From Candidatus Staskawiczbacteria bacterium RIFCSPHIGHO2_01_FULL_39_25 (GTDB lineage Bacteria; Patescibacteriota; Minisyncoccia; Minisyncoccales; Staskawiczbacteraceae): 43,718 nt of DNA. The position numbers and the translations under genes are program-made. The notes under the pieces are model-generated. The model searched no databases, was not told the origin of the DNA, and saw only the letters and a program-made list of their open reading frames with translations. The stretch lies in assembly GCA_001820095.1 (NCBI GenBank), contig MHOO01000003.1, forward strand, positions 66,987 to 110,704, in the 5' to 3' direction. Positions 5,163-43,718 of the stretch are shown one piece after another (within the stretch, counting starts at the first letter, position 1; each line of letters starts with the position of its first letter).

Positions 5163-5249
5163 ACATTTAACAATTAACATTTAACAATTGACAGTAAATG
5201 GCTAACGGTTTTTGTCACATGTCAAATGTCAATGGTCAAATGTCACATT
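5163..5249 (+). repeat. 7-nt periodic hairpin, type A (CAATTGA/TGTCAAA)
   Basis: Left arm ACAATTAACATTTAACAATTGAC, right arm GTCACATGTCAAATGTCAATGGTCAAATG, running into the rpmG ATG. Confidence 0.85.
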
Positions 5250-5411
5250 ATGGCTACAAAAAAACCGTTTTTAAAAATGCAATGTACGGTGTGTAAAAAA
5301 GTGAATTATTTTACCAAAAAATCCAAATTGCTTGCAGAAAAAAAGTTAGAGATGTCAAAATTCTGCAACCGCTGCAAAAAGCACACCCTGCACAAGGAAA
5401 GTAAAAAATAA
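5250..5411 (+). CDS. rpmG: 50S ribosomal protein L33 (Zn-ribbon type)
   Basis: CTVC...NYFTKK...KFCNRCKKHTLHKE. Start moved to ATG 5250 because the 5226 start lies in the repeat. Confidence 0.95.
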   Translation: MATKKPFLKMQCTVCKKVNYFTKKSKLLAEKKLEMSKFCNRCKKHTLHKESKK

Positions 5412-5535
5412 TTTATTGTGCGACAAAAGATGCAAAAAGCCGGCTTTTACCGAGTCGGATTTTTTGTTTATGCAATCTGTGGATTATTTTTTGTTGTTAA
5501 TATATTTTCTAATGCTATAATAAAGTAATTATTTT

Positions 5536-6762
5536 ATGAATCAACCCATTCAAAAAAATCAAGGCGAGAAAGGATTTTTACCGATTATATTAATAGTAAT
5601 TATTGGGGTAGCAGTTATCGCGGCAGGAGGCGGTTTTTGGTATTATCAGCAGTCGGCTAATCAATCGGCTGATCAAAGCGAAGTTTCTGCTCCAGATGAA
5701 CAGTCACAACAAGCCGGCAAAGAAGAACAATCAGAAAAAACGGAGGTATCAAAACCAGCAGAAAAAGCTGCTGTACAAAAAGAAGCCCCAAAGACTGCCG
5801 CAGAGCAACTTTCTCAAACTTCTTCTGCTACTCCTACCCCTGCTCCCAAACCCAGTACTTGTGATCTAATTCCCCGCCCAAAAAAATTTAACAAGACCCC
5901 TTATTATACGGGCCAGCTTTTTGATGCCCACTTCCACGTGCCTAATCTTTCCGAAGTCAGCTTAAACAAGCTTCTATGCATATTTGATAAAGAAAAGGTA
6001 AAGGGAACAATTCTTTTTTACTGGAACTCCCAGCTATCGTTGGAAAAAAGGCTGGCCGAAGCAGAATCCATAAAGAATGCTTCTTTACAAAAAATCCGTA
6101 TGTTCTTATCGCCTGTTCAATATAATTTAAAAGCATTGGAAGATATTGAAGCTGCCCATAAAGGACTGTTCACCGGCTATGGTGAAATGGCTTTTTACAA
6201 CCGTGGCGATCCCAGCCAAAGTTATTACCCTAAAAGGCCTGACGAGCAACAGTTTCTTGATATATACGCCTTAGCTGAAAAAAATAATTTTGTTGTAATG
6301 ATTCATCCTGACCGGGGGCAGGAACAAGCCATTGAAAACATTCTAAAGAAATATCCTAATGTAAAGTTTTATTTCCACGGAGACGAGATAGAGAATGTCA
6401 TTATTGGCTTGATGGATAGATACCCAAACGTCTATTATTCAATAGACGCAGTTTTATCCCGGCTTCCTTTTCCTCCAGCGGACGCACTCCATATATCAAG
6501 CTCTGAAAATGATTATGTAACAAAGATAACGCAAAACTTTTCTGCCATATTAGACGGAGCTGTAAATGAATGGAAAGCAAAAATTGAAAAGCATCCCGAC
6601 AGATTCACCTGGGGAACAGATAGGGGAGGGTTTGCTTGGCACTATGGTGAAGAAGTAAGCCGTTTATTTGAAGAATTATCCCGGTCATTTATTGGCCGGC
6701 TTGATCCTTCAGTGCAAGAAAAGTACGCCTATAAAAACGCTGAAAGTTTGCTACAAAAATAG
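5536..6762 (+). CDS. Membrane-anchored/exported amidohydrolase-family metallohydrolase
   Basis: N-terminal KGF plus hydrophobic helix, low-complexity linker, metal ligands DAHFH, MIHPD, FHG, WGTD. Confidence 0.8.
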   Translation: MNQPIQKNQGEKGFLPIILIVIIGVAVIAAGGGFWYYQQSANQSADQSEVSAPDEQSQQAGKEEQSEKTEVSKPAEKAAVQKEAPKTAAEQLSQTSSATPTPAPKPSTCDLIPRPKKFNKTPYYTGQLFDAHFHVPNLSEVSLNKLLCIFDKEKVKGTILFYWNSQLSLEKRLAEAESIKNASLQKIRMFLSPVQYNLKALEDIEAAHKGLFTGYGEMAFYNRGDPSQSYYPKRPDEQQFLDIYALAEKNNFVVMIHPDRGQEQAIENILKKYPNVKFYFHGDEIENVIIGLMDRYPNVYYSIDAVLSRLPFPPADALHISSSENDYVTKITQNFSAILDGAVNEWKAKIEKHPDRFTWGTDRGGFAWHYGEEVSRLFEELSRSFIGRLDPSVQEKYAYKNAESLLQK

Positions 6763-6864
6763 GTTACTGGTATTGGAAACACACACCACATACAGAGGCA
6801 AAAGGCTTAAGAAATAAAAATCGCCAATTGGGTGATTTTTGTTTTTAATAGATTGCCAAATGGC

Positions 6865-6894
6865 TTGACAAATCATTATCTATTATGCTATAAT
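6865..6894 (+). promoter_or_regulatory. sigma70-like promoter
   Basis: TTGACA-18-TATAAT with TG extension. Confidence 0.7.
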
Positions 6895-6941
6895 TAACTT
6901 ATAGGGTAAAAAACAGCACATTTCAAAAAAAGGAGCTTCGT

Positions 6942-7859
6942 ATGTGGGATTACATGCGGGAAAAGCTTGGCGAAGAAAATTCAAAAAGAGCTTTAGTTTT
7001 CCTCGTAGCATTTCTTATCGGAGCATGGTCATTTAAGGGATGCAGCCCAAGTGTTGAAAAAGCAACTTTCGACGAAAACAAGAAAGAACTAGAAATCTTC
7101 AGAAAGGAAAAAGCAGAGCAAACGGCCCAAGAAAAAGCCGAAAAAAAGTTAGATCCCAAAATTACCGAGCTTACCAACAAGCTTAATGAAGCGGAGAAAA
7201 GCCTAGCTGCTTTCAAAGCCAAAGAAGAGCTGGAAAAGCTGCGGACCGAAGAAGCCAAAAAGGCTAAGATGGCCTTCGATGAGAAAGAAAAAGCCTTGGA
7301 AAAAGAGCGGGAAAGCCTAAGAACTAAGGAACGAACTCTAGAGGATCGGGAAAGAAGCATAAAGAAAAAAGAAGAAGAATTAGAGAAGAAAAAAGTCGCA
7401 GCGCCTCCGGTTATAGAAAAGCCGGCGGTTGCCGCAAAAAAACCAGAAAGGATGGTGGGCCAGCCGTTTCAGAGCACGAGCTTTCAGGGTAGCGAGAGAA
7501 GCTATAATGCCAAACTCAAGGCAATGCTTGAAGTTTCCCGCAGCCGGCTTGCGTTCTACGCGCAGCAGCAAAAGAGAAGGCATCTCTATGAACTCCAGCT
7601 TAAGAGGCAGTACTCTCAAGTTGAATGGGTTCAGCCCACGAGCTCCGTTACGGGCTTGCCAATCCGAGGAGTAGCGGCCTATACCAGAGTTTCCTCTCCA
7701 GCACAGCTCTTGAAGATAGGGAGCTTAATGGAGGCGTTTGATCTCCAACAAGCTCAAGAAAATCTGGATTTTGAGAATTGCCTTAATCTTTCCGAAGCTT
7801 CATTTGATTTGCAGCTTCAGAAGGCAAGGCCGCTTTCAAAAGGCTTCAGGGGCTTCTAA
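6942..7859 (+). CDS. Hypothetical coiled-coil protein with N-terminal membrane/lipoprotein-like anchor
   Basis: AAGGAG SD, hydrophobic stretch ending FKGCS, E/K-rich coiled coil, terminator after the stop. Confidence 0.8.
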   Translation: MWDYMREKLGEENSKRALVFLVAFLIGAWSFKGCSPSVEKATFDENKKELEIFRKEKAEQTAQEKAEKKLDPKITELTNKLNEAEKSLAAFKAKEELEKLRTEEAKKAKMAFDEKEKALEKERESLRTKERTLEDRERSIKKKEEELEKKKVAAPPVIEKPAVAAKKPERMVGQPFQSTSFQGSERSYNAKLKAMLEVSRSRLAFYAQQQKRRHLYELQLKRQYSQVEWVQPTSSVTGLPIRGVAAYTRVSSPAQLLKIGSLMEAFDLQQAQENLDFENCLNLSEASFDLQLQKARPLSKGFRGF

Positions 7860-7950
7860 TCCTGAAGATTAACCTCGCTGATCGCCATCAACGAGGTTTT
7901 TTTTGACCAAACGCCAGAAATTTGATACTATAAAATTAAAATTCGGTCTC

Positions 7951-9392: not shown

Positions 9393-9409
9393 TCAAGTAT
9401 CTAAAAAGG

Positions 9410-9560: not shown

Positions 9561-9593
9561 TTTTTATTTGTTTTAAAATTATTAAAGTGAATA

Positions 9594-9707
9594 TAGAATC
9601 TTGTATCTGGAAGCTAGAATAGAATAAAGAGTAGAGAATTTAAAACCGATATTCTAAATTCAAAATTCTATTCAAGATACTAGATACTAAATTCAAGATT
9701 CAAAAAC
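9594..9707 (+). repeat. 7-nt periodic hairpin, type C
   Basis: AATCTTGTATCTGGAAGCTAGAAT ... ATTCAAGATACTAGATACTAAATTCAAGATTC, ending at the rplJ start. Confidence 0.8.
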
Positions 9708-10221: not shown

Positions 10222-10308
10222 ATGAATCTGGAATCTGGTATCTGGTAGCTAGAATAAAAAATAACGCATTCAAGCTTCAAGATACAAAATTCAAGATTCT
10301 CACTAAAC
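10222..10308 (+). repeat. 7-nt periodic hairpin, type C
   Basis: AATCTGGAATCTGGTATCTGG ... TTCAAGCTTCAAGATACAAAATTCAAGATTC. Confidence 0.75.
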
Positions 10309-15688: not shown

Positions 15689-15835
15689 TTCTAATTTGAA
15701 ATTTACAATTTGAAATTTGAATTCAATATATCAATATAACAATATCTTAATTTGAAAACACGAAGTCGAGTTTTAAATATTTCAAATTTAATTATTTCAA
15801 ATTGATTTCAAATTGTAAATTTCAAATTTCAAATT
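15689..15835 (+). repeat. 7-nt periodic hairpin, type B (AATTTGA/TTTCAAA)
   Basis: Near-copy of 29514-29648 with a central AAAACACGA..TCG.GTTTT palindrome. Confidence 0.85.
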
Positions 15836-16720
15836 ATGATACACATCCCGGTTCTTATCAGGGAAGTATTGGAATATTTAGACCCTAAGCCAAATGAGAA
15901 TTTTATTGATGGTACGGTGGGAGAGGGCAGCCATGCCATTGAGATCTTAGAAAGGAATAAGCCGGAGGGGAAGGTGCTAGGCATAGATTGGGACGCAAAA
16001 CAGGTTGAGAATAGCAAATTTTATACTTCGCGGTTTAAAGAAAGAATAATCGTAGTCAATGGTTCGTATGCAAATATGAAAGATATTGCAGAAAGAATGC
16101 ATTTTACGCCCGTGCATGGCATATTGCTGGATTTAGGGTATTCATCATGGCAGATAGAGCAATCAGGAAAGGGATTTTCCTTTAATAAAGATGAAGCATT
16201 GGACATGAGGTTTAATGCGCACAATCCGGTAACGGCGGAAAAAATTATCAATGAATATTCGGAACTAGCAATAGAAAAAATAATAAGGGAGTACGGAGAA
16301 GAAAAATTTTCAAAGCAGATTGCAAGGGAAATTGTACGGCAACGGAAAATAAAAAAAATACAAAGCACCTTTGAATTAAACAATGTTATAGAGCGGGCAA
16401 TGCCTCTAAAGTCCAGGCATGGCAGAATCCATTATGCGACTAGGACATTTCAAGCCTTGCGTATTGCCGTAAATGGGGAGCTGGATAATCTGCAAAAAGG
16501 CTTGCTTGAAGCAATTTCAATTTTGTCTCCTGGAGGAAGATTAGTAGTCATCTCTTTTCATTCTCTAGAAGACAGGATTGTGAAAAATGCTTTTAAATAT
16601 GCAGTCAATAACAAAATGGCCAACCTGCTAACTAAAAAGCCCGTAAGGGCTTGGGCAAAAGAAATGGCAGTTAATCCCAGGGCACGGTCAGCCAAACTAA
16701 GAGCACTTATTAAGATATAA
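15836..16720 (+). CDS. rsmH: 16S rRNA m4C1402 methyltransferase
   Basis: HIPVL, DGTVGEGSH, LLDLGYSS, LDMRF, FQALRIAVNGEL, ISFHSLEDRIVK, NPRARSAKLR. Confidence 0.98.
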   Translation: MIHIPVLIREVLEYLDPKPNENFIDGTVGEGSHAIEILERNKPEGKVLGIDWDAKQVENSKFYTSRFKERIIVVNGSYANMKDIAERMHFTPVHGILLDLGYSSWQIEQSGKGFSFNKDEALDMRFNAHNPVTAEKIINEYSELAIEKIIREYGEEKFSKQIAREIVRQRKIKKIQSTFELNNVIERAMPLKSRHGRIHYATRTFQALRIAVNGELDNLQKGLLEAISILSPGGRLVVISFHSLEDRIVKNAFKYAVNNKMANLLTKKPVRAWAKEMAVNPRARSAKLRALIKI

Positions 16721-23795: not shown

Positions 23796-23891
23796 TGCGT
23801 CAGTTTCGCGTAAAGTTTCGCGTCAGTTCTGCGATACATGACTCCGCAAAACAAACGCTAAATATAACGCAAAACAGACGCGAAAAATACC
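23796..23891 (+). repeat. Periodic hairpin variant (TTTCGCG/CGCAAAA units)
   Basis: CTGCGTCAGTTTCGCGTAAAGTTTCGCG ... CGCAAAACAAACGC...CGCAAAACAGACGCG before the galU start. Confidence 0.65.
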
Positions 23892-26472: not shown

Positions 26473-26477
26473 AATTA

Positions 26478-26601
26478 TTTTGAATCTAGAATTTCGTATC
26501 TTGAAGCTTGAATTGAATAATGAATTTAGAATGTGAATTTTTACATTCAGTATTCTTGATTCTATTCTAGCTTCCAGATTCAAGATACTGAATTCACGTT
26601 T
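26478..26601 (+). repeat. 7-nt periodic hairpin, type C
   Basis: Similar to 37126-37244 and 9594-9707 (CAAGATACTGAATTCA). Confidence 0.8.
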
Positions 26602-27543: not shown

Positions 27544-28765
27544 AATTAAATCTATAAAAGCTTCCGAAATCAAAGACTCGCGCGGCAAGCCGACGGTTGA
27601 GGTTGAGCTAATTACTGAAAAGGGCAGTTTTGTGGCGTCTTGCCCTTCGGGCGCTTCTACGGGAAAAAATGAGGCTTTAGAATTAAGAGATGCAGATGGC
27701 AGGGGAGTTTCAAAGGCTATAGAAAATGTAAATAAGATTATTGCGCCAAAATTAGTTGGCAAAGACCCTTCAAATCAAAAAGAACTGGATGATTTGATGA
27801 TTGCCTTAGATGGTACTCCCAATAAATCAAAATTAGGCGCTAATGCTATATTACCCGTTTCCATGGCTATTTGCAGAGCCGGCGCTGCCGCAAAGAAAGT
27901 TCCTCTTTATCAGCATATTGCCGATCTCTCCGGATTCAATCTTCCAGCTTCCAGCTTCAAGCTTCCATTAGCTTGTTTTAATATTTTAAACGGCGGCGCT
28001 CACGCTAAAAATGATTTAGAGTTGCAGGAATTTATGGTAGTACCCATGAAAAATACATTCCAGGAAAATTTAGTATTGGGAAGCCAAGTATTTAATGCGC
28101 TGACTGAATTGTTAAAGCAAACTCCTGGCGGAGTGCCCAATATGGGAGATGAAGGAGGATATGCTCCGCAAATTTCAACCGCAGAACAGGCACTATTTTT
28201 AATTAAAAGCGCTATTGGCGAGCATAAAGAAGTGAAAATCGCATTGGATTGCGCAGCTTCAGAATTTTACCGAGATGGAAAGTATGAAGTTGAAGAGGGC
28301 AAACAGTTGTCGCGCAACGAAATGATTGAATTTTATAAAGATTTAGCTGGCAGGTTTCCAATTATATCTATTGAAGATGCGTTTTCAGAGGAAGATTGGG
28401 AGGGTTTTAAGGAAATCCGCCATGAACTTCCCGAGGTAATTATTATCGGTGATGATTTGACTACCACCAATATTAGTAAAATAAAAGAAGCCCAAAGCAA
28501 GCAGGCCTGCAATGGAATTATTATAAAACTAAACCAAATCGGGACGGTTTCAGAAACCATTGAGGCGGTAAATTTGGCGAAAAGTTACGGTTGGAAAATT
28601 ATGGTAAGCCATAGGTCAGGTGAAACATTAGATAATTTTATTGCGGACTTGGCAGTGGGAGTTGGTGCGGATTTTCTAAAGGCAGGAGCTTACACAAAAG
28701 AAGAAAGGATGGTAAAATACAATAGGTTGTTGGAAATAGAAAGTGAATTTGCTAAAAGCAAATAA
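27536..28765 (+). CDS. eno: Enolase
   Basis: DSRGKPTVEV, PSGASTG, LGANAIL, GDEGG, IKLNQIG, SHRSGET. Confidence 0.98.
   Translation: MSKIKSIKASEIKDSRGKPTVEVELITEKGSFVASCPSGASTGKNEALELRDADGRGVSKAIENVNKIIAPKLVGKDPSNQKELDDLMIALDGTPNKSKLGANAILPVSMAICRAGAAAKKVPLYQHIADLSGFNLPASSFKLPLACFNILNGGAHAKNDLELQEFMVVPMKNTFQENLVLGSQVFNALTELLKQTPGGVPNMGDEGGYAPQISTAEQALFLIKSAIGEHKEVKIALDCAASEFYRDGKYEVEEGKQLSRNEMIEFYKDLAGRFPIISIEDAFSEEDWEGFKEIRHELPEVIIIGDDLTTTNISKIKEAQSKQACNGIIIKLNQIGTVSETIEAVNLAKSYGWKIMVSHRSGETLDNFIADLAVGVGADFLKAGAYTKEERMVKYNRLLEIESEFAKSK
27941..27968 (+). repeat. Four heptamers (CTTCCAG-like) inside eno
   Basis: CTTCCAG CTTCCAG CTTCAAG CTTCCAT, encoding LPASSFKLP. Confidence 0.7.
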
Positions 28766-28850
28766 ACATTTGACCATTGACATTTGACAATTGACAACGG
28801 AAAAACGAAACGACGGTCAAATGTTAATTGTCACATGTTAAATGTAATAT
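28766..28850 (+). repeat. 7-nt periodic hairpin, type A
   Basis: CATTTGACCATTGACATTTGACAATTGAC ... GTCAAATGTTAATTGTCACATGTTAAATG; fills the whole eno-gpmA gap. Confidence 0.85.
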
Positions 28851-29519
28851 ATGGCTAACTTATTTTTACTAAGGCATTTAAAATCACAGTGGAACCAAGA
28901 CAACCGCTTTGCGGGGTGGGTGGATAACCCTTTATCAAAAGAGGGGATTTTAGCGGCAAAAGAAATTGCTGGAAATTTGAGCGGTGAAAAAATTGATGTG
29001 GCCTATACGTCGTCATTAATCAGGTGCCAAGAAACTATTTTACGGATTTTTGAGCATATGGGCAATAAATATCCGCTTTTTTTGCATTTAGACGGCGGAG
29101 CCATGGAGAAATGGGGGAATTTTACTGGCATCGGGCAGAATGATATGCCGGTGTATGTTTCAGAAAAATTGAATGAAAGGTACTACGGAAAAATACAAGG
29201 GTTGAATAAAGAAGAAACCATGGAAAAATATGGCAAAGATTTAGTGCACGTATGGAGAAGGGGATACAACGATAAGCCGCCGGGAGGAGAATCGTTGAAA
29301 GATGTCTATAAAAGAAGCGTTCCGTTTTTTAAAAAATATATTGAGAAGGATTTAACATCGGGCAAAGATGTTCTTTTGGTGGCAAGTCATAATAGCTTGC
29401 GTGCTATCGTAAAATACCTCGAAGGCATTTCTGATGAAGACATTGCCAATGTAGAGCTGCCTTTCGGCGCATTAGTACGATACGATTTTGATGGAGAGTC
29501 TTATAAAAAAATAATTTGA
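28851..29519 (+). CDS. gpmA: 2,3-BPG-dependent phosphoglycerate mutase
   Basis: LRH..SQWN..NRFAGW.D, LNERYYG, GESLKD, SHNSLR. Confidence 0.93.
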   Translation: MANLFLLRHLKSQWNQDNRFAGWVDNPLSKEGILAAKEIAGNLSGEKIDVAYTSSLIRCQETILRIFEHMGNKYPLFLHLDGGAMEKWGNFTGIGQNDMPVYVSEKLNERYYGKIQGLNKEETMEKYGKDLVHVWRRGYNDKPPGGESLKDVYKRSVPFFKKYIEKDLTSGKDVLLVASHNSLRAIVKYLEGISDEDIANVELPFGALVRYDFDGESYKKII

Positions 29520-29648
29520 AATTCGAAATTTGAAATTTGAATTCAATATAAAATATTACAATATTTCAATTTGAAAACACGACGTCGTGTTTTATTTATT
29601 TCAAATTCAACCATTTCAAATTGATTTCAAATTGTAAATTTCAAATTG
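29514..29648 (+). repeat. 7-nt periodic hairpin, type B
   Basis: Near-copy of 15689-15835; centre AAAACACGACGTCGTGTTTT. Confidence 0.85.
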
Positions 29649-29705
29649 TGTTGCATTAAATTCTTTTTATACTATAATTAGTTATTATAATTAAGCAACT
29701 AACTT

Positions 29706-30802: not shown

Positions 30803-31033
30803 ATGGTAATCATTTATTCAACTCCAACATGCGTATATTGCAATTCTCTTAAACAGTATCTTACTGACAAGAATATTGCATATAAAGAAATTGATGTATC
30901 CCAAAATGAACAGGAGTTAGAAAAAATGGTGGCTATTTCAGGCCAAATGGGGGTTCCCGTGGTTGATATTGATGGAAATATTGTCATTGGGTTTGATAAA
31001 GTGAAGATAGATGAGTTATTAAAATTAACCTAA
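30803..31033 (+). CDS. Glutaredoxin (NrdH/YruB-like)
   Basis: YSTPTCVYC, GQMGVPV, IGFD. Confidence 0.93.
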   Translation: MVIIYSTPTCVYCNSLKQYLTDKNIAYKEIDVSQNEQELEKMVAISGQMGVPVVDIDGNIVIGFDKVKIDELLKLT

Positions 31034-31125
31034 TTGACCTAATTATTCTAATTAACCTAATTAAATCCTAATTCGTAAAATTCGTTTTAGAATAATTAGT
31101 ATAATTAGAACAATTAGAATAATTT
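31030..31125 (+). repeat. Periodic hairpin variant (CCTAATT/AATTAG units)
   Basis: ACCTAATTGACCTAATT ... AATTAGTATAATTAGAACAATTAGAA before gap. Confidence 0.7.
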
Positions 31126-32136
31126 ATGCCAATCAAATTGGCTATCAATGGTTTTGGCCGAATCGGCCGGCAAACGTTCAAAAGAATACTGGAAAAGTAT
31201 CCTGATTTGGAAGTAGTTGCCATCAATGATTTAACTGACACTAAAACGTTAGCCCACCTTTTAAAGTATGACTCTAACTACGGAACTTTTAATAAAGAGA
31301 TAAGTTCTACCGAAGATACGATCTTAATTAATGGAAAAGCGTATAAGATTTTAGCGGAGAAAAGCGTAGAGAAATTGCCATGGAAGAAATTGGGCGTGGA
31401 TATTGTGCTAGAATGCACGGGTCTTTTCACGAGCAAAGATGAATCAAAAAAACATATTAAAGCCGGAGCCAAAAAAGTTATTATTTCAGCTCCTGCCAAA
31501 GAGAAAGAAATTCCGGGTTTTGTGTTGGGGGTAAACGCAGATTTATTTGATCCCGAAAAAAATGATGTCATAGATATGGGTTCTTGCACTACAAATTGCC
31601 TGGCGGTTATGGCTAAGGTGTTGCACGATGAGTTTACGATAGTAAAAGGGTTTATGACCACGGTTCATAGCTACACCAATGACCAAAAAATTCTTGACTT
31701 GCCCCATAAAGATTTACGAAGGGCAAGGGCCGCAGCCGTAAATATTATCCCAACCAGCACGGGAGCGGCGCGGGCTATCGGGAAAATGATTCCAGAATTA
31801 GATGGAAAATTAGATGGAATTGCCATGCGCGTGCCGACTCCCGTAGTTTCTGTTCTTGATTTAATCGTAGAAGTTGGGAAATCAACTACCAAAGAAGCTG
31901 TAAATGAAGCGTTTAAAAAAGCTGCCAGTCAGGAAAGCTTCAAGGGAATTTTGCGGGTTGAAGAAAATCCATTAGTTTCTTCGGATTTTAAAGAAGATAG
32001 CCACTCGGCTATTATTGACGCAAACGAAACGATGGTAAAAGATAATCTCGTAAAAGTAGTCGGCTGGTACGACAACGAGTGGGGTTATTCATGTAGGTTA
32101 GCCGAGTTTGCTGATTTTGTGGGTAAAAAACTTTAG
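31126..32136 (+). CDS. gap: Type I glyceraldehyde-3-phosphate dehydrogenase
   Basis: INGFGRIGR, SCTTNCL, NIIPTSTGAA, WYDNEWGY. Confidence 0.99.
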   Translation: MPIKLAINGFGRIGRQTFKRILEKYPDLEVVAINDLTDTKTLAHLLKYDSNYGTFNKEISSTEDTILINGKAYKILAEKSVEKLPWKKLGVDIVLECTGLFTSKDESKKHIKAGAKKVIISAPAKEKEIPGFVLGVNADLFDPEKNDVIDMGSCTTNCLAVMAKVLHDEFTIVKGFMTTVHSYTNDQKILDLPHKDLRRARAAAVNIIPTSTGAARAIGKMIPELDGKLDGIAMRVPTPVVSVLDLIVEVGKSTTKEAVNEAFKKAASQESFKGILRVEENPLVSSDFKEDSHSAIIDANETMVKDNLVKVVGWYDNEWGYSCRLAEFADFVGKKL

Positions 32137-32262: not shown

Positions 32263-34665
32263 ATGGAAGAAAAAAGTAAAAAAAATATAGTGTGGTTTAA
32301 GGATTTGAGCATCAAAGATGTTGCGCTGGTTGGCGGCAAAAATGCTTCGCTGGGTGAAATATATAATAACTTAGTGCCTTACGGCGTGCGCATTCCTAAC
32401 GGGTTTGCCACTACGTCCGAGGCATATTTTTTGTTTTTAGATGCGACAGGATTAACAAAAAAAATACAAGAAATTTTAAAGTATATTAATGTCCACGATC
32501 TGAAAACTTTACAGGAAAAAGGTAAAAAAGTAAGGGGATTAATTATGAGCGCGGAACTTCCCTTGGATTTAAAAAATGAAATTGTGGAAGCTTATAAAAA
32601 ATTATCAGAAGAATATAAATCTAAAAATGTGGATGTTGCTGTTAGGTCATCGGCTACTGCTGAAGATCTGCCGGGGGCTTCTTTTGCCGGCCAGCAGGAA
32701 ACTTTTTTAAATATTACCGGAGAAAAAAACGTATTGGAGGCCGTAAAAAAATGTTTTGCTTCCCTTTTTACCGATAGGGCTATAGTTTACCGGCAAGAAA
32801 TGGGGTTTGGCCATACTAAAGTAGGGTTATCGGCTGGAATACAAAAAATGGTAAGGTCCGATGTGGCATCTTCCGGAGTAATGTTTTCTTGTGATACCGA
32901 ATCGGGTTTTGCTGATGTTGTGTTGATTAATGCAAGTTTTGGCCTGGGAGAAAATGTGGTATTGGGCAGGGTTGAACCAGATCAATATTATATTTTTGAG
33001 TCTACGTTAAAAAAGGGATTTAAGCCGGTTATTGAAAAGAAGATCGGGTCAAAGCTGATAAAAATGGTTTATACTGCTAATCCGAAGGCGCCGACAAAAA
33101 ACGTATCAACATCGGCTAAAGAAAGACAGAGTTTTGTGTTATCTGATGATGAAATTTTGCAATTGGCCGAATGGTCACTGTTGGTTGAGGAACACTATCA
33201 AAAGCCTATGGATATGGAGTGGGCAAAAGACGGCAAAAACGGAAAATTATATATTGTGCAGGCGCGGCCGGAAACCGTGCAAAGCAAACGGAATGTTAAT
33301 GTGCTAGAAAATTATGTTTTGCAAAAGACCGCCAGCGCAAAAATTCTCGCCAAAGGAATGTCAGTTGGAAGTAAAATAGGTTCAGGAAAAGCCAATAAAA
33401 TAATGTCAGCAAAAGACATTAATAAATTTAAAAAAGGAGAAGTGCTGGTAACGGGCATGACTGATCCTGACTGGGTGCCAGCGATGAAATTGGCCTCGGC
33501 TATTATAACTGACCAAGGCGGAAGAACGGCGCATGCGGCCATTGTGTCACGCGAATTGGGAATTCCTTGTATTGTGGGAGCTTCAAATGCCACCAAAACT
33601 ATAAAAACGGGCACCGAAATAACCGTAGATTGCTCGGGCGGCGAACATGGGCTAGTGTATCAAGGGCTTATTCCATTTAAGGTCAATAAAACTGATATTT
33701 CAAAAATAGAAAAACCAAAAACAAAAATACTCATGAACTTAGCCGATCCTTCACAGGCATTTAATTTAAGTTTTATACCTAATGATGGAGTGGGGCTAGC
33801 CCGCGAGGAATTTATTATTGCTAATACTATAAAAATCCATCCTAGCGCGCTGATTAATTATAAAAAATTGCCTTCCGCACTGCGTAAAAAAATTGATGCG
33901 CTTTCGGTTGGCTATGAAGATAAGACGCAGTTTTATGTAGATAAGCTGGCCGAGGGAGTTGGAAAAATTGGAGCGGCATTTTATCCTAAGCAAGTTATTG
34001 TGCGATTCTCTGATTTTAAAACGAATGAATATCGGGGATTGATCGGCGGAGAATTGTACGAACCTGAAGAAGAAAACCCTATGATCGGCTTTCGCGGAGC
34101 TTCACGATACTATCATGAAAAATTCAAGGAAGCCTTTATATTAGAATGCAACGCTATTAAGAAAGCAAGAGAAGAATTTGGCATAGATAACATTGCGGTT
34201 ATGGTGCCATTTTGCAGAACCGTAGAAGAAGGTAGAAAGGTACTAGAAATAATGGAAGCAGCAGGTTTAAAAAAAGGCGAACGCGGCTTAAAAATATTTG
34301 TCATGGCTGAAATTCCTGCAAATATTATATTGGCCAAGCAGTTTTTGGAAATTTTTGATGGATTTTCTATTGGCTCAAATGACTTGGCCCAATTAACGCT
34401 GGGACTAGACCGTGATAATTCAGAAATAGCGGCTGTGGGAAATGAAAAAAATGAAGCAGTAAAAGAACTGATTAAAGAAGTAGTAAAGGTTTGTAAAGAA
34501 AAGGGCAAGTATTCGGGAATCTGCGGCCAAGCGCCGAGCGACTTTCCCGATTTCGCTGAATTTCTGGTAGAATTAGGAATAGAGTCTGTTTCTTTAAATC
34601 CGGATTCCATTATTAAGACAATGTTGGTAGTTTCAGAGAAAGAAAAACAGTTAAGCGACAATTGA
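32263..34665 (+). CDS. ppsA: Phosphoenolpyruvate synthase
   Basis: GGKNASLGE, RSSATAEDL, QARPETV, GGRTAHAAIVSRE, GFSIGSNDL, ICGQAPSD. Confidence 0.98.
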   Translation: MEEKSKKNIVWFKDLSIKDVALVGGKNASLGEIYNNLVPYGVRIPNGFATTSEAYFLFLDATGLTKKIQEILKYINVHDLKTLQEKGKKVRGLIMSAELPLDLKNEIVEAYKKLSEEYKSKNVDVAVRSSATAEDLPGASFAGQQETFLNITGEKNVLEAVKKCFASLFTDRAIVYRQEMGFGHTKVGLSAGIQKMVRSDVASSGVMFSCDTESGFADVVLINASFGLGENVVLGRVEPDQYYIFESTLKKGFKPVIEKKIGSKLIKMVYTANPKAPTKNVSTSAKERQSFVLSDDEILQLAEWSLLVEEHYQKPMDMEWAKDGKNGKLYIVQARPETVQSKRNVNVLENYVLQKTASAKILAKGMSVGSKIGSGKANKIMSAKDINKFKKGEVLVTGMTDPDWVPAMKLASAIITDQGGRTAHAAIVSRELGIPCIVGASNATKTIKTGTEITVDCSGGEHGLVYQGLIPFKVNKTDISKIEKPKTKILMNLADPSQAFNLSFIPNDGVGLAREEFIIANTIKIHPSALINYKKLPSALRKKIDALSVGYEDKTQFYVDKLAEGVGKIGAAFYPKQVIVRFSDFKTNEYRGLIGGELYEPEEENPMIGFRGASRYYHEKFKEAFILECNAIKKAREEFGIDNIAVMVPFCRTVEEGRKVLEIMEAAGLKKGERGLKIFVMAEIPANIILAKQFLEIFDGFSIGSNDLAQLTLGLDRDNSEIAAVGNEKNEAVKELIKEVVKVCKEKGKYSGICGQAPSDFPDFAEFLVELGIESVSLNPDSIIKTMLVVSEKEKQLSDN

Positions 34666-34745
34666 CCATTGACAATTGACAATTAACCATTAGCCGCGTT
34701 TTATCGTTGGTCAAATGTTAAATGTCAAATGTTAATTGTTATATT
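34660..34745 (+). repeat. 7-nt periodic hairpin, type A
   Basis: ACAATTGACCATTGACAATTGACAATTAAC ... GGTCAAATGTTAAATGTCAAATG; the left arm overlaps the ppsA stop. Confidence 0.85.
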
Positions 34746-36271: not shown

Positions 36272-37132
36272 ATGAAGCCACTAAAATACTATTTTAAAAA
36301 AGCATATAAAGAAAAATTTGCGATTGGGCAGTTTAATTTCTCTACGTTTGAGCAGGTGAAAGGAATTGTGGCTGCGGCGCAGAATTTGAAAAGCCCTATT
36401 ATTTTGGGGACTTCAGAAGGGGAAAGCAAGTTTGTAGGCTTGCAAGAAGCAGTGGCGCTACGTAACGTGCTACGTAACAAAACAGGGTTGCCGATTTTTT
36501 TGAATTTAGACCACGGCAAATCTTTTGATTATTTAAAAAAGGCTATTGCGGCAGGGTATGACATGGTGCATTTTGACGGATCAAAATTGCCATTGGAAGA
36601 AAATATAAAAATAAGCAGCCAAGTGGCAAAATATGCCAAATGGCGAAGCGTGGTAGTAGAGGGGGAAGTAGGCAGGTTTGGCACGGATGCTTCCCGTTTA
36701 TATACAGAAAAATTTGAGATAAAGGAAGAAAATTTAACCAAGCCAGAAGAGGCAAAACAATACCTCCATATGGCTAACGTAGACGTTTTAGCGGTGAGCG
36801 TGGGAACATTCCATGGTTTGGATGTTAGCGGCGCCTCTCCCCATATTAGATTAGAAAAGCTGCAAGAAATTAATGCGATTGGTGTGCCATTAGTATTGCA
36901 CGGGGGATCGGGAACTCCAGAAGAAGATATAAGAAAAGCCATACAATCGGGCATTGTAAAAATCAATATTAATACAGAATCACGGGTTGCATTTTCCCAT
37001 ACGTTAAGAAAAACATTGGAAGCAAATAAAGAAGAAATAACCCCGTATAAGTATCTGCAAGATTCAGTGCAAGCAGTACAACAGGTTGTAGAGGAAAAAA
37101 TAAAGCTGTTTGGAAGCAATAATAGAATCTAG
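36272..37132 (+). CDS. fba: Class II fructose-bisphosphate aldolase
   Basis: LDHG, DGS, VEGEVG, AVSVGTFHG, LVLHGGSG, KININT. Confidence 0.95.
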   Translation: MKPLKYYFKKAYKEKFAIGQFNFSTFEQVKGIVAAAQNLKSPIILGTSEGESKFVGLQEAVALRNVLRNKTGLPIFLNLDHGKSFDYLKKAIAAGYDMVHFDGSKLPLEENIKISSQVAKYAKWRSVVVEGEVGRFGTDASRLYTEKFEIKEENLTKPEEAKQYLHMANVDVLAVSVGTFHGLDVSGASPHIRLEKLQEINAIGVPLVLHGGSGTPEEDIRKAIQSGIVKININTESRVAFSHTLRKTLEANKEEITPYKYLQDSVQAVQQVVEEKIKLFGSNNRI

Positions 37133-37244
37133 AATCTTGTATCTTGAAGATTGAATGGAATAAAGGAATAATGAATGTGAAAAACGTTCGTATTCTAAAT
37201 TCAAAATTCTATTCCAGCTACTAGATACTGAATTCAAGATTCTC
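37126..37244 (+). repeat. 7-nt periodic hairpin, type C
   Basis: AATCTAGAATCTTGTATCTTGAAG ... CTAGATACTGAATTCAAGATTC. Confidence 0.8.
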
Positions 37245-37290
37245 GTTAAGAGTATTTACAAATCCAAATAAATATATTAAGATTCTAACC

Positions 37291-39456: not shown

Positions 39457-39573
39457 GTGGGCGTTCGTTGTTAGTTTTTAAAGTACCGATAGTCAAAAAT
39501 TCCAAGGATTTTCAAAATCAGAAAATAAAATGTAGCATATATTTAAAAGCTTTTAAAAAGATGCTATTTTTCA

Positions 39574-39605
39574 GTGGTCAAATGTTAATGGTCAAATGTC
39601 AATTG
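39574..39605. repeat. Type A heptamer arm at the prfA 3' end
   Basis: GTGGTCAAATGTTAATGGTCAAATGTCAATTG. Confidence 0.7.
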
Positions 39606-40342
39606 TTTTTCAAGGCTTTCGTAAATGCCTTGAAAATGGGTTCCATTTTTCCGTCAATAATGCTTTCTAAATCGTGCCAGGATTTGCCGATGCGGTGGTC
39701 GGTAATCCTATTTTGCGGATAGTTATAGGTTCTCGTTTTTTCTGAACGCTTTGCCCAGCCTATTTGGGCCCGCCTTGCTTCGGTTAATTTTGACATATCG
39801 GACTCCTGCTGGGCTTGCAAAAGGCGCGCAGCCAAAAGCGACATGGCGTTTTCTTTATTCTGGAGCTGGCTCCGTTCAGTTTGGGAGGTTACCACTAGGC
39901 CGGAGGGCTTATGGGTGATTCTTATGGCAGATTCCGTTTTATTAACGTATTGGCCGCCGGCCCCCGAAGACCGATAGGTATCTATCCTAAGGTCTGAAGG
40001 GTTGATATTAATATCCATTTTCTGGGGTTTTTCCAGCACGGCAATGGTTACGGTTGAGGTATGCACTCGGCCCTGTTTTTCTGTTTTAGGAATCCGTTGT
40101 ACTCTATGGACTCCGCTTTCATATTGCATCAAGTCAAAAACACCAGGCCCAGTAAATTCAAAAACGATTTCTTTATACCCGCCAATATCTGATTGATTTG
40201 AATCTAAAATCCGTTGGCCCCAGTCTTGTGAGGTGGCATATTTTGAATACATTCTATATAGGTCGCGTACAAAAAGCCCGGCCTCGTCTCCACCGGTTCC
40301 AGCGCGAATTTCTATAATAGCTGATTGCTTTTCATTTTCCAT
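39599..40342 (-). CDS. prfA: Peptide chain release factor 1, N-terminally short (247 aa)
   Basis: IRAGTGGDEA, ESGVHRVQRIPKTE (PxT), GAGGQYVNKTESA, RTYNYPQNRITDHR. Confidence 0.92.
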   Translation of the reverse strand: MENEKQSAIIEIRAGTGGDEAGLFVRDLYRMYSKYATSQDWGQRILDSNQSDIGGYKEIVFEFTGPGVFDLMQYESGVHRVQRIPKTEKQGRVHTSTVTIAVLEKPQKMDININPSDLRIDTYRSSGAGGQYVNKTESAIRITHKPSGLVVTSQTERSQLQNKENAMSLLAARLLQAQQESDMSKLTEARRAQIGWAKRSEKTRTYNYPQNRITDHRIGKSWHDLESIIDGKMEPIFKAFTKALKNN

Positions 40343-41045: not shown

Positions 41046-41741
41046 ATGGTAGATGATATTAAAATAAACTTAAATATAGAAGAGATGCAAAAGGCAGGCT
41101 TGAATTTTGGTCACAATGTTTCCCGCTTGCATCCAAGAATGAAGCCGTATGTGGCGGGCATTAAAAATAATGTCCACATGATAGATTTGGAAAAAACAGC
41201 CAAAGAATTTGAACGGGCGCTGAAATTTATTGCAAAATTAGCCGGCGAAGGGAAAACAATCTTATTTGTTGGCACTAAAATACAGACAAAAGAGCTCGTG
41301 AAAGCAACCGCAGAAGATTGTAAGATGCCGTATGTGGCGGAGCGGTGGCTTGGCGGAACGTTTACGAATTTTGAAACGATATCAAAAAGAGTGGCGTATT
41401 TTAAAGAGCTTGAACATAAAAAAGCAAGCGGGGCATTGGAAAAATATACTAAAAAAGAGCGCGCAAATTTTGACAAAGAAATAGAATCTCTAAGGATTAA
41501 GTTTGAGGGGATTAAAAACCTCGCCAAGATTCCTGAAGCTGTGTTAATTTTAGACATTAAAAAAGATATTACTTGCGCCAGGGAAGCAAAAAGGAAAAAA
41601 ATTACGATTATCGGGGTGACTGATACCAATATTGACCCTGCGCTGGCCGATTATGCTATACCGGCAAATGATGATGCAATATCGTCCGTTAAGTATATTT
41701 TAGAGAAAATTCAAGAAGTAATACTTAACGGAAAATCCTAA
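41046..41741 (+). CDS. rpsB: 30S ribosomal protein S2
   Basis: AGLNFGH, LFVGTK, RWLGGTFTN, DTNIDP, IPANDDA. Confidence 0.98.
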   Translation: MVDDIKINLNIEEMQKAGLNFGHNVSRLHPRMKPYVAGIKNNVHMIDLEKTAKEFERALKFIAKLAGEGKTILFVGTKIQTKELVKATAEDCKMPYVAERWLGGTFTNFETISKRVAYFKELEHKKASGALEKYTKKERANFDKEIESLRIKFEGIKNLAKIPEAVLILDIKKDITCAREAKRKKITIIGVTDTNIDPALADYAIPANDDAISSVKYILEKIQEVILNGKS

Positions 41742-41832
41742 GCACGAAGCACGAAATTCGAAACAAATTCGAATTTTCTAAATTCTAAATTTAAGTATTG
41801 TTTTCGAATTTTTATATTCGGATTTCGAATTT
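41742..41832 (+). repeat. 7-nt periodic hairpin, type B variant (CGAAATT/TTTCGAA)
   Basis: GCACGAAGCACGAAATTCGAAAC ... GTTTTCGAATTTTTATATTCGGATTTCGAATT. Confidence 0.75.
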
Positions 41833-42417
41833 ATGATTAATATTGAAGATATTAAGAAATTAAGGGAAGAAACTGGTGTCTCGCCAGTAGAAATAAAAAA
41901 AGCTTTAGCGGAAGCTAAGGGTGATGCGCAAAAAGCCAAAGAGCTTTTAAGGGTTTGGGGCAAATCAGTCGCCGGTAAAAAAACTGCGCGGGAGGCAAAA
42001 CAGGGGATTATCGATTACTACTTGCATCCTAATGCGAAAACAGGGGTGTTGCTGGATATTAGGTGTGAATCTGACTTTGTTGCTAAGTCTCCGGATTTTA
42101 AGCATTTAGCCCATGAAATCTGTTTGCAAATTGCGGCTATGAAGCCGTTATTTGTATCAGAGGAAAGTATTCCGGAAGAATTTTTAGATGGTGAAAAAAA
42201 AATCTACTTAGAACAGCTTAAGGATTCCGGAAAACCAGAAAACATTGTAGTACAAATTCTTGAGGGAAAACTGGAAAAATATAAAGAATCAATTTCTTTG
42301 TTAAACCAAGCATGGATAAAAGATGACTCAAAGACAGTAAAGAATTTAATTGAGGAAACTATTTCTAAGGTAGGGGAGAATATAGAAGTGAAAAAATTTG
42401 TAAGATACGAAATATAG
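41833..42417 (+). CDS. tsf: Elongation factor Ts (short form)
   Basis: IKKLREETG, RCESDFVA, LLNQAWIKD, GENIEVKKFVRY. Confidence 0.97.
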   Translation: MINIEDIKKLREETGVSPVEIKKALAEAKGDAQKAKELLRVWGKSVAGKKTAREAKQGIIDYYLHPNAKTGVLLDIRCESDFVAKSPDFKHLAHEICLQIAAMKPLFVSEESIPEEFLDGEKKIYLEQLKDSGKPENIVVQILEGKLEKYKESISLLNQAWIKDDSKTVKNLIEETISKVGENIEVKKFVRYEI

Positions 42418-42496
42418 TTTAACAATTAACAATTAACAATTAACAATTGACCAACGGTTGTCAAAGGTCAAATGTCAATGGTCAATTGTCGTTAAA
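42417..42496 (+). repeat. 7-nt periodic hairpin, type A
   Basis: (AACAATT)x4 GACC ... GTCAAAGGTCAAATGTCAATGGTCAATTGTC. Confidence 0.85.
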
Positions 42497-42817
42497 ATGG
42501 TTCAGCTTATTGCTTTCATTATTTTCATACTTTCTGTTGGCGGGATTTTTTTTATTTTGTATAGGAAAGTTCCGGTATTAATTCAGTTGCCCCAGAATGG
42601 GCATCATGGAATTAAAAAGCATGAGTTTATTGCAACCGTAGAGAAGAAGATAAAAGAAGTTTATTTCCACCTATTTTCAAAACAAATGCTCTTGCATAAA
42701 GTACTCTCTAAGGTAAGAATTTGGACATTAAAAATAGAACGGAAAATTGATACTCTCTTGCATGGCATTAGAAAAAAGGCCCAGGAACTAGATAAGCAAG
42801 TGAAAAAGAAAAAATAA
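42497..42817 (+). CDS. Hypothetical protein with N-terminal TM helix
   Basis: Start ATG 42497 (the 42458 start lies in the repeat). Confidence 0.75.
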   Translation: MVQLIAFIIFILSVGGIFFILYRKVPVLIQLPQNGHHGIKKHEFIATVEKKIKEVYFHLFSKQMLLHKVLSKVRIWTLKIERKIDTLLHGIRKKAQELDKQVKKKK

Positions 42818-42822
42818 GTGAT

Positions 42823-42894
42823 GCCGGTGTAGCTCAGCGGTAGAGCAACGCTTTTGTAAAGCGTGGGCCAGGTGTTCGAATCACCTCACCGGCT
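42823..42894 (+). tRNA. tRNA-Thr(UGU)
   Basis: GCCGGTG/CACCGGC, ACGCT-TT-TGT-AA-AGCGT, GTTCGAATC. Confidence 0.95.
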
Positions 42895-42912
42895 CATGAT
42901 AAGGAAAAGGTA

Positions 42913-42940
42913 TTGACAATGGTTTTATTTAGAATAGAAT
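42913..42940 (+). promoter_or_regulatory. rRNA operon promoter
   Basis: TTGACA-16-TAGAAT upstream of 16S. Confidence 0.65.
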
Positions 42941-43071
42941 AGTAAGTGCAGATAAAATTAAACAAACAACTAAGACCAATATATTTTAAAAACTAAATTA
43001 GTTTTAAAAATATCCGCGTCCCGATGTAATGCAAGCATCGTATCGGGACGCGGGTGTTTTTTTCCATAGTC

Positions 43072-43094
43072 TCGCCGAAGGTCGGCGAAGGCGG
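43072..43094. repeat. REP-like variant in the rrn leader
   Basis: TCGCCGAAGGTCGGCGAAGGCGG resembles 8030-8053. Confidence 0.6.
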
Positions 43095-43311
43095 AACCCG
43101 GCCTGCTAAATTTATATTTGGCCAGCTGAAAAAGTACCTTAATAAATACACTCATGATTGCAAAGTGCAACATATGGGCATATATTGAATCCCAATTTTG
43201 GAAAACCATCCTAAAATTGGGGAAAATATCTTGATTAAAGAATCAAGATAGGTAATTAGTTTTTTAAAGTTGTCTCGAATAAGCGTTTATTAACTGCTTT
43301 AAGTTAATAGT

Positions 43312-43718
43312 ATATTTGAGAGTTTGATCCTAGCTCAGGGTGAACGCTGGAAATGTGGATACCGGCATGCAAGTCAAGGGGCAACGCATCACTTTGCGAG
43401 TGATGCGACGGTTGACAATTAACATTTAACAATTGACGACGAGTTTTTTAAAAAGCTCAATAAAGTCAAATGTCACATGTCAAAGGTCAAATGTTGCGCA
43501 TCGCGCGCAGCGTGATGCGTTGCACCGGCGAACGGCTTAGTAACACGTAGATACATACCCAAAAGTGGGGCATAGCTCGTCGAAAGACGGGGTAATTTCC
43601 CATAGTCCTGCAAAGGTAAAGGCGCAAGCCGCTTTTGGAATGGTCTGCGGTCTATCAGCTAGTTGGTGAGGTAATGGCTCACCAAGGCTATGACGGATAG
43701 GGGGCGTGAGAGCGCGAC
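43312..43718 (+). rRNA. rrs: 16S rRNA, 5' part (start approximate, truncated by window)
   Basis: AGAGTTTGATCCTAGCTCAG, CATGCAAGTC, GGCGAACGG, TAGTTGGTGAGGTAATGGCTCACCAAGGC. Confidence 0.97.
43381..43523 (+). other. Enlarged V1/helix 6 of 16S containing a type A heptamer hairpin
   Basis: GCAACGCATCAC/GTGATGCGTTGC closing stem encloses ACAATTAACATTTAACAATTGAC ... GTCAAATGTCACATGTCAAAGGTCAAATG. Confidence 0.85.

Follow-up and report, generated by a model that had tools for sequence, protein, structure and literature searches.

The window analysed here is a stretch of 43,718 nucleotides of Candidatus Staskawiczbacteria bacterium RIFCSPHIGHO2_01_FULL_39_25 (GenBank assembly GCA_001820095.1, contig MHOO01000003.1, positions 66,987 to 110,704). 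Its operon junctions are repeatedly occupied by hairpins with arms of short tandem repeats, and the question is what these hairpins are and how they came to lie there. The original prediction described them as a family of heptamer hairpins and took them for non-autonomous copies of a mobile or expanding element that acts at the RNA level. The genome, obtained from groundwater, has a size of 743 kb and is 99.25% complete. Repeats in the window were detected with Tandem Repeats Finder and an inverted-repeat scan, folding was expressed as z against dinucleotide shuffles, and gene calls follow a crude ORF rule.

The inverted-repeat scan joins the period-7 arrays of the window into paired arms. The presence of a heptamer hairpin family was confirmed: 14 of the 15 sites fold as single long hairpins (MFE -16 to -37 kcal/mol, z -2.2 to -6.0). 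None of the 15 elements contains an ORF. Flavour A (arms ACAATTR/ACATTTR and GTCAAAT) is found at 5150..5255, ending 0-3 nt before the start of rpmG (L33) (MFE -23.9, z -3.1), at 28764..28850 between the genes for enolase and phosphoglycerate mutase (z -5.05), at 34655..34745 between ppdK and a pfkB-family kinase gene (MFE -26.9, z -4.8), at 42415..42495 on the 3' side of tsf (z -2.4), where the TTAACAA arm pairs weakly in the sense RNA (A.C oppositions), and on the forward strand at 43409..43497 within the 16S rRNA gene. Flavour B (GAATCTN / NAGATTC) lies between the L10 leader (9394-9575) and the rplJ start at 9588..9702 (MFE -31.2, z -5.95), occupies the gap from the rplJ stop to the rplL start at 10222..10301 (z -5.6), and recurs at 26477..26600 between genes for a 2-hydroxyacid dehydrogenase and a thioredoxin-reductase-like protein (MFE -36.7, z -5.65) and at 37118..37256 between those for class II FBP aldolase and ribosomal protein L25 (MFE -36.5, z -4.8). 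Flavour C (AATTTGA / TCAAATT arms with a conserved apical stem) is represented twice, both times on the forward strand: at 15689..15836 between mraZ and rsmH (z -4.5), with 98.6% identity to a copy at C12:17405 whose flanks are unrelated, and at 29508..29652 (TAATTTGAAAT...), which begins at the gpm stop codon (z -2.8).

The junction genes (L10 leader/rplJ/rplL, mraZ/rsmH, ftsZ, eno/gpm, grx/gap, ppdK/pfkB, fba/L25, rpsB/tsf) agree with the original description of the flanks. Period and build had been described as conserved throughout; this holds for the period-7 arrays that Tandem Repeats Finder reports at the other coordinates, but not for two sites. The hairpin at 23796..23882, between ftsZ and an NTP-transferase gene (MFE -31.1, z -4.7), has the same build with non-heptameric arms of period 11-12 (TTTCGCGTCAG), and the one at 31011..31127, between glutaredoxin and GAPDH (z -4.8), has period 9 (CTAATTANN / TTAGAATAA). 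The arms of the latter are also those of an IVP cassette at C11:49368. The hairpin claimed at 39574 is a lone flavour-A arm without partner (GGTCAAATGTTAATGGTCAAATGTCAATTGT, 39571..39603, z +1.5), located at the 3' end of a release-factor gene. The hairpin between rpsB and tsf (41738..41832, MFE -18.2, z -2.2), assigned earlier to flavour C with units AATTTGA/TTTCAAA, is an AAATTCG-type variant.

Across the genome, 157 tandem runs of period 7 were counted, compared with seven of period 6, one of period 8 and ten of period 9; the period-7 excess is far above chance expectation. The census comprises about 93 periodic hairpins, with a median length of 110 nt, a median stem of 39 bp and an MFE near -30 kcal/mol; they make up 1.39% of the genome and occupy 75 of the 585 co-oriented junctions. 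Period 7 is seen in 95 of 111 arms, with a median of 3.9 units. Arm length varies little, a median of 4.1 units (IQR 3.6-4.4) also being obtained, and seldom exceeds five units. Stops in all three frames are present in 46% of 5' arms. Some arms stand alone, and there are half copies as well. The hairpins lie close to both codons: at the median, 3 nt separate the upstream stop from the 5' base of the hairpin, and 7 nt separate its 3' base from the next start. Co-oriented junctions are modestly enriched (79/91 hairpins vs 585/785, p 0.009), and some copies lie at convergent or divergent junctions. Intrinsic terminators, with a GC-rich stem and a U tract, were rejected as candidates, since these stems are rich in AT and a start codon comes within a median of 7 nt.

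Larger copies that carry an ORF were looked for and found, which supports the view of the hairpins as non-autonomous copies. This genome has four genes for PF05635 four-helix-bundle proteins, all outside the window and each between periodic inverted arms (flavours A and B, a 9-mer and TTAGGGT). PF05635/TIGR02436 genes ("23S rRNA IVS protein") are present in 25 of the 26 genomes of the genus, and the number bracketed by periodic arms is put at about 100. With a threshold of at least 11.5 for the inverted repeat score, 61 of 77 such genes are bracketed; for control genes the figure is 10 of 212 (Fisher p 1e-36). Elsewhere in the order, other families give 10 of 18. PF05635 is the sole gene ever found between the arms, and each main flavour has a full-size counterpart with this gene inside the same arms. 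The genomes of the genus (0.4-1 Mb) contain one to nine cassettes each and gene-less copies by the dozen. The loop ORF matches XCC0516 (2GSC) with E 4.5e-24. The DGR accessory protein Avd was considered and rejected, the scores being 24 and 20 bits against an NF033474 cut-off of 80; the only reverse transcriptase of the genome is on another contig and does not adjoin any IVP gene.

Aligned to the B cassette, the gene-less B copies are colinear with it at either end. An IVP gene with flavour-C arms is absent from this genome; C-armed cassettes occur in three others (G011, G035, G003). Their first 30 nt are identical to those of the gene-less C element described here, and at the 3' end ~66 nt resemble it closely. 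In four genomes with many gene-less C copies (G000, G002, G007, G016), the IVPs found include none with C arms; either the element does not strictly need its cognate protein in that genome, or the cognate gene was not assembled. Only 12 of 46 junctions have an exact string of at least 14 nt in common with an IVP arm from their own genome.

Comparison of empty and filled sites favours mobility. The rplJ-rplL spacer measures 1-25 nt in seven of 25 species, with TAATATG in G009, and 40-147 nt in the remaining 18, where it consists nearly always of hairpins from at least 12 unrelated families. Of 24 species, 21 have a filled and three an empty junction of L10 leader and rplJ, and among metagenome relatives 17 spacers of at most 30 nt and 35 of more than 60 nt were found. 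The same 80-150-nt sequences, non-repetitive apical parts included, are found again in other species and at loci that are unrelated, and B-armed IVPs of 89-91% identity lie at non-orthologous sites. Elements appear and disappear at orthologous sites, and near-identical copies stand at unrelated ones.

We consider it likely that the hairpins are gene-less miniatures of a small palindromic cassette family, of the same kind as the ORF-bearing rRNA IVSs. Such a family would reside mainly at stop-start junctions within operons, and in addition at the tip of 16S helix 6. The IVP would recognise its own repeat arrays, and this interaction would maintain or propagate the element. The stem of roughly 39 bp could fold the insert out of the transcript and keep a stop codon and the start codon that follows it, or both sides of an rRNA helix, as close as at an empty site; this would be why the elements persist in junctions and at the tips of helices. 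The stems are probably cut by the RNase III of the genome, by analogy with rRNA IVSs.

The IVPs are under strong purifying selection (dN/dS 0.02-0.13, with dS saturated), and their genes have the same direction as 71 of 73 callable neighbours. Between species with saturated 4-fold sites the arms are 80-95% identical, a figure somewhat inflated by local alignment. In individual comparisons, 4-fold sites are 29-57% identical and the flanking arms match at 41/44, 44/46 or 57/63 positions, among others, again with some inflation from local alignment of repetitive sequence. The arm sequence is conserved far past neutral expectation and more strictly than silent codon positions, and arm unit types coincide with IVP clades. 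Together with the occupancy of junctions and an rRNA helix, this constraint and this correspondence lead to a specific and testable binding hypothesis: IVS proteins may be sequence-specific readers of the 7-nt units, clade and word co-evolving, with binding that copies, protects or retains the cassette and that gives rise to much of the heptamer excess and to the rRNA IVSs. We regard this extension as tentative and rather doubtful.

Another reading is that the hairpins are RNA structures selected by the host, as RNase III sites, 3' stabilisers or devices for translational coupling, hairpin families being interchangeable and mobility incidental. The genome does encode RNase III, REP and IVS stems are established targets of RNases and exonucleases (PMC4990558), unrelated sequences, both periodic and non-periodic, fill the two rplJ junctions in most species, the hairpin bases abut stop and start codons, and the excess at co-oriented junctions, modest as it is, points the same way. 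We nevertheless hold it to be unlikely. The same operon has truly empty sites in healthy relatives, copies also lie in 16S rRNA and at convergent and divergent junctions, and arm conservation beyond what pairing demands is left unexplained, as is the tracking of arms with proteins. The action at the RNA level that had been proposed, as processing sites or initiation platforms, found no support either: gene-less flavour-C copies are random in orientation relative to host genes (five sense, five antisense), and the stem oppositions on the sense strand show no excess of G.U (42, vs 55 A.C), the antisense RNA folding slightly better. The genes behind the hairpins had been said to have no SD. SD sequences are indeed scarce, but this is a property of the whole genome and not of genes preceded by a hairpin; SD-like motifs were found at 11.6% of the genes without a preceding hairpin, vs 6.5% in shuffled upstream sequence.

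Non-autonomous transposons of a conventional type (MITE, REP/REPIN or IS200/IS605-type) that depend on a transposase gene located elsewhere, and in which the four-helix-bundle gene is a passenger, would account for the palindromic build, the dispersal, the occurrence in both orientations and the presence/absence polymorphism, all of which are MITE- or REPIN-like. A Y1_Tnp/RAYT transposase (PF01797) was searched for and had no match in this nearly complete genome, while control genomes gave matches, and no target-site duplication was seen at the ends of 11 full flavour-C copies. A passenger would also be at odds with PF05635 being the only gene between the arms, with its low dN/dS and with its co-directional placement. 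This makes a conventional transposon quite improbable. The MITE, as a derivative of a DDE transposon, is disfavoured by the missing flavour-C duplication and by the sole parent-like element carrying PF05635. Neutral growth in place, in which slippage expands 7-nt repeats in AT-rich spacers and template switching from arm to arm makes palindromes, with neither element nor function, is scarcely credible: slippage has been proposed for the heptamer SSRs over-represented in many bacteria (PMC4692102), Coxiella strains differ in heptamer copy number (PMC4990558) and lone arms and half copies do exist, but it is contradicted by whole copies recurring with their apical parts, by arms far more conserved than 4-fold sites, by the narrow unit number of about four and by the one gene family inside the arms.

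Under the cassette reading, the 16S rRNA copy is one more occupied site. The tip of helix 6 is enlarged to 122 nt, compared with 3 nt in the Rfam consensus, by an insert of about 43383-43521 that includes the flavour-A hairpin. Nine species have the 18-nt AAGGGGCCGCAAGGCACC in its place, and heptamer hairpins of three flavours are found in G000/G007, G016/G033 and G015; in occupancy the helix 6 tip behaves like the operon junctions. It holds one of the 15 window copies, the other 14 being found at the ends of genes or between protein-coding ones. The assembly lacks 23S rRNA.

To our knowledge, the rRNA IVS and its S23p/IVP gene have gone more than 30 years with neither a function nor a mode of spread assigned to them, and we know of no accepted explanation for the surplus of 7-nt repeats in the genomes of bacteria. 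The genus is a compact system in which the two are tied together. The rRNA IVSs (Coxiella burnetii helix 45, Leptospira, Brucella, Xanthomonas; PMC4990558) and the cassettes share a long terminal inverted repeat that forms a stem, a loop ORF of one family, PF05635/TIGR02436, in the sense of the host transcript, tandem heptamers just 5' of the ORF start and a sporadic distribution; one copy here also lies at an rRNA helix tip. In Coxiella, the S23p ORF is preceded by tandem heptamers, the first of which is where RNase III cleaves (PMC4990558); excision here would follow that analogy. In contrast to rRNA IVSs, most copies here lie between protein genes of operons, the ORF is absent from most, through loss or from the outset, and about 93 copies of several flavours share one 743-kb genome. 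The Coxiella ORF is decaying (PMC4990558), unlike the protein here, on which purifying selection is strong.

Inserts in 16S and 23S rRNA of CPR bacteria include 23S_rRNA_IVP ORFs and many uncharacterised ORF-less inserts of less than 200 bp at stem-loop tips, as far as the available text of PMC11270868 goes. The helix 6 insert is one such; that text does not link the short inserts to heptamer-armed hairpins between protein genes. Other heptamer arrays, as given in the accessible parts of PMC4692102 and PMC4679880, are GGGAATC in Xanthomonas, GGGGAYT in Nostoc and TAACTGA in Beggiatoaceae. They and the STRR of heterocystous cyanobacteria resemble the present arms in consisting of few tandem 7-nt units, intergenic, often in inverted pairs and near start codons, variable between close relatives and of unexplained function; the Beggiatoaceae arrays likewise have stops in three frames (PMC4679880). 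Units and host phyla differ, and in those parts the arrays are described as repeats per se, the link to a cassette gene not being made. The hairpins agree with the description of STRR or heptamer SSRs, a descriptive class to which no mechanism is attached. REP/BIME/REPIN, Correia, RUP, BOX and RPE elements are likewise dispersed palindromic intergenic repeats in operons, co-transcribed, tolerated at gene ends and variable in occupancy between strains. Unlike REP/BIME/REPIN, which go with RAYT in Proteobacteria, the hairpins have no RAYT/Y1, their arms are tandem short units, and the protein of their full-size relative is a four-helix bundle and not a transposase.

The elements are relevant to the annotation of CPR genomes as well. 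They lie exactly at stops and starts, extend ORF calls and expand the V1 region of the 16S rRNA gene, and assemblies are likely to break at them. The right arms of flavour A supply spurious ATGs.

Period-7 arrays were detected by Tandem Repeats Finder at nearly all positions where the original prediction had placed 7-nt-periodic hairpins, and an inverted-repeat scan joined these arrays into paired arms within the window. RNA folding gave a single long hairpin at 14 of the 15 sites (MFE -16 to -37 kcal/mol, z -2.2 to -6.0). The site at 39574 is a lone arm, the hairpins at 23796 and 31030 (31011-31127) have arms of period 11-12 and 9, respectively, and the hairpin at 41742 is an AAATTCG variant. 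The flanking genes are also as described, mostly co-oriented genes of translation, glycolysis or division. In the host genome (G000, 743 kb in 12 contigs), the window corresponds to C3:66987-110704. This genome contains 157 periodic runs of period 7, seven of period 6, one of period 8 and ten of period 9. The 93 periodic hairpins, with a median of 110 nt and 39 bp, make up 1.39% of the genome and fill 75 of the 585 co-oriented junctions. Co-oriented genes flank 79 of 91 hairpins vs 585 of all 785 junctions (p = 0.009; genes were called by a simple ORF rule, and copies in one hairpin family are non-independent). From the upstream stop codon to the 5' base of the stem the median distance is 3 nt, and from the 3' base to the next start codon it is 7 nt. 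Three main flavours were distinguished by their arm units: GACAATT/GTCAAAT in A (85-95 nt), GAATCTN/NAGATTC in B (110-130 nt) and AATTTGA/TCAAATT in C, which is about 145 nt long and has a conserved apex. Besides these, several minor families and a 9-mer flavour were identified.

Larger copies with a four-helix-bundle ORF in the loop, proposed as a check, were found as cassettes carrying PF05635 genes, in which periodic arms surround a gene for a "23S rRNA IVS protein" (IVP). G000 contains four PF05635 genes, every one between periodic inverted arms, which are of flavour A (gene at C11:104350), flavour B (C11:167731-168120), the 9-mer type of window positions 31011-31127, and a TTAGGGT type. 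The proteins belong to the family TIGR02436 ('four helix bundle proteins'), with a match to PDB 2GSC (XCC0516) at E 4.5e-24. One to nine PF05635 genes are present per genome in 25 of 26 genomes of the genus. At an inverted-repeat score of at least 11.5, a bracketing repeat was found for 61 of 77 IVP genes in the genus vs 10 of 212 control genes of the same size (p = 1e-36), and three of these ten controls are genes merely situated between two hairpins. Ten of 18 IVP genes in other families of the order are likewise bracketed. Flavour C lacks a PF05635 gene in G000, and C-armed IVP cassettes are present in three other genomes of the genus (G003, G011 and G035). The G035 cassette is identical to the gene-less C of G000 over the first 30 nt and highly similar over about 66 nt at the 3' end, including the stretch directly past the stop codon. 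Gene-less copies of flavour B align colinearly with the B cassette at both ends. In the related genome G034 a 35-nt exact string is common to a gene-less hairpin and an arm of a cassette in the same genome, and 12 of 46 junctions share an exact match of at least 14 nt with an arm of an own-genome cassette, where the background median is 9. IVP genes run in the same direction as their neighbours in 71 of 73 callable cases, unlike the gene-less copies.

IVP genes have dN/dS values of 0.02-0.13 with saturated dS. Fourfold degenerate sites are 29-57% identical, and the adjoining non-coding arms of the same species pairs are identical at, for example, 41/44, 44/46, 57/63 and 42/44 positions, as counted in local alignments of repetitive sequence. 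In a maximum-likelihood tree the IVP clades coincide with the arm unit types, and the size of the arm arrays is narrow, with a median of 4.1 units (IQR 3.6-4.4). Neutral slippage as the origin of the hairpins is excluded by this arm conservation, the match of clade and arm type, the narrow size and the strings shared with cassettes. The same sequence comparisons argue that the arm sequence, beyond pairing alone, is probably read by something, and the co-inherited IVP would be the obvious candidate for the reader. The notion that arms have five units to suit a pentameric protein was dropped on account of the median arm size. Stop codons in all three frames occur in 46% of the 5' arms (shuffles 18%) and 4% of the 3' arms (shuffles 16%) of the 93 G000 hairpins, in either reading direction; the same property is described for TAACTGA repeats (PMC4679880). 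All-frame stops were rejected as the cause of period 7, since the copies are non-independent and a TTATCAA family in a relative is of the opposite class.

Both empty and filled states were seen at three orthologous sites in relatives. The rplJ-rplL spacer is 1-25 nt long in seven of 25 species (TAATATG in G009) and 40-147 nt in the other 18. Nearly all of these longer spacers are hairpins, from at least 12 unrelated families that include flavours B, C and 9-mer. Between the L10 leader and rplJ, three species have an empty junction and 21 a filled one, with many families. In a set of 60 metagenome relatives, the rplJ-rplL spacer is at most 30 nt in 17 and longer than 60 nt in 35. Two close metagenome pairs from other lineages (94.5% and 90.8% nucleotide identity) differ by one hairpin each, both non-periodic. 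No strain-level empty site was found for the species of G000, whose closest metagenome relative has 87% amino acid identity, and insertion boundaries are inexact because the closest relatives are 70-87% identical at best. Two flavour-C copies in G000 are 98.6% identical with unrelated flanks; relative to the surrounding genes, this flavour has five copies in sense and five in antisense orientation, and no target-site duplication was found at its copies in G000. B-armed IVPs with 89-91% identity are located at non-orthologous sites. As dS of the B cassette is saturated between species, this high identity reflects constraint and not recency, and recent horizontal transfer of the cassette was rejected on the same ground. 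RAYT/IS200-type mobilisation was rejected because no Y1 transposase was found in G000, and a link to diversity-generating retroelements (DGR) via Avd because the IVPs score below the Avd cut-off and the reverse transcriptase is located elsewhere. A PrgI/T4SS-like operon (G000:C11:48400-49760, outside the window; syntenic loci L024, L026, L027, L033 and L037 in relatives) is a cassette hot spot, with IVP cassettes at consecutive stop-start junctions, two in G000 and three each in G007, G033 and G001. One junction of this operon holds cassettes of different IVP clades and arm types, depending on the species. In three species (L031 in G002, L032 in G016 and L034 in G009), the IVP clade beginning MYNFEKL (TAGTTNN arms) directly precedes a tRNA gene.

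The predicted action at the RNA level left no sense-strand signature of selection in folding and G.U tests. The sense RNA is not the stabler strand in G000 (23 vs 39 elements, p = 0.013 in favour of antisense), and stems show no significant G.U excess in the sense strand (42 vs 55 A.C). Absence of a Shine-Dalgarno (SD) sequence, proposed as a trait of genes that follow the hairpins, is not specific to them, as SD-like motifs are scarce across the genome (11.6% vs 6.5% in shuffled sequence); one of 66 genes after hairpins has such a motif. RNase III is encoded in G000, and its cleavage of the hairpins is plausible by analogy with the Coxiella IVS stem, which is cut by this enzyme at the first tandem heptamer (PMC4990558). 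Insertion at junctions may be tolerated because stop and start would lie at opposite strands of the stem base. With this geometry, which fits the model, and with empty spacers of 1-25 nt, a folded insert would restore the original closeness of stop and start.

Among known kinds of element, the ORF-bearing IVS of rRNA comes closest. For CPR, a survey of rRNA genes describes IVP ORFs and numerous unexplained short inserts without an ORF (PMC11270868). Cyanobacteria, Xanthomonas and Beggiatoaceae are known to carry heptamer arrays, for which there is no accepted explanation (PMC4692102, PMC4679880). Among the papers searched, none was found that ties genes of PF05635/TIGR02436 to heptamer hairpins scattered between genes. 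New here are a census of the hairpins over the whole genome, the comparison of empty and filled states at three orthologous sites, the correspondence of protein clade and arm type, arm conservation in excess of silent sites, and the difference in orientation between copies with and without a gene.

In the window, a flavour-A hairpin occupies the tip of 16S rRNA helix 6 (122 nt vs 3 nt in the Rfam model). The short form of this helix, present in nine species, is the 18-nt AAGGGGCCGCAAGGCACC; helix 6 hairpins are of flavour A in G000 and G007, of TCAAAAA type in G016 and G033, and of CACGAAT type in G015. The insert (43383-43521; L109 in G007 and L110 in G016) is nested. On each side, G000, G007 and G016 have a GC-rich extension in common (GCGCATCAC...GTGATGCG), with a flavour-A tip in the first two and a TCAAAAA-type hairpin in the third. 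The 23S rRNA is absent from the G000 assembly.

The right arms of flavour A (5226-5249, 28816-28850, 34710-34745) contain an ATG each 7 nt (AAATGTC), so that longest-ORF calls push the starts of rpmG, gpm and pfkB 20-35 nt into the hairpin; these ATGs are a likely source of mis-annotated starts. Partnerless heptamer arrays are located within the coding sequences of enolase (CTTCCAG x3.9, 27941-27967) and trmD (AAAATCA x4.6, 4087-4118). The sole RNase III gene of G000 (C4:46212-46607) has a periodic hairpin on either side (C4:45580-45654 and C4:46849-46976), of which one is heptameric and the other of 9-mer type. The match of the release-factor gene (39599-40342, minus strand) to PCRF begins only at model position 96, and the N-terminal part lies outside the ORF, which may be the usual programmed +1 frameshift of prfB or a break. 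Immediately after the stop of the pfkB-family gene lies a non-periodic GC-rich multi-helix element (35734-35905) with 46-nt outer arms (TTCGCTCGCTAG.../...CTAGCTCGCTTC) and two inner hairpins. It resembles the CGCTCGGCAAC...GTTGCCTCGC hairpins at the rplJ-rplL junctions of relatives.
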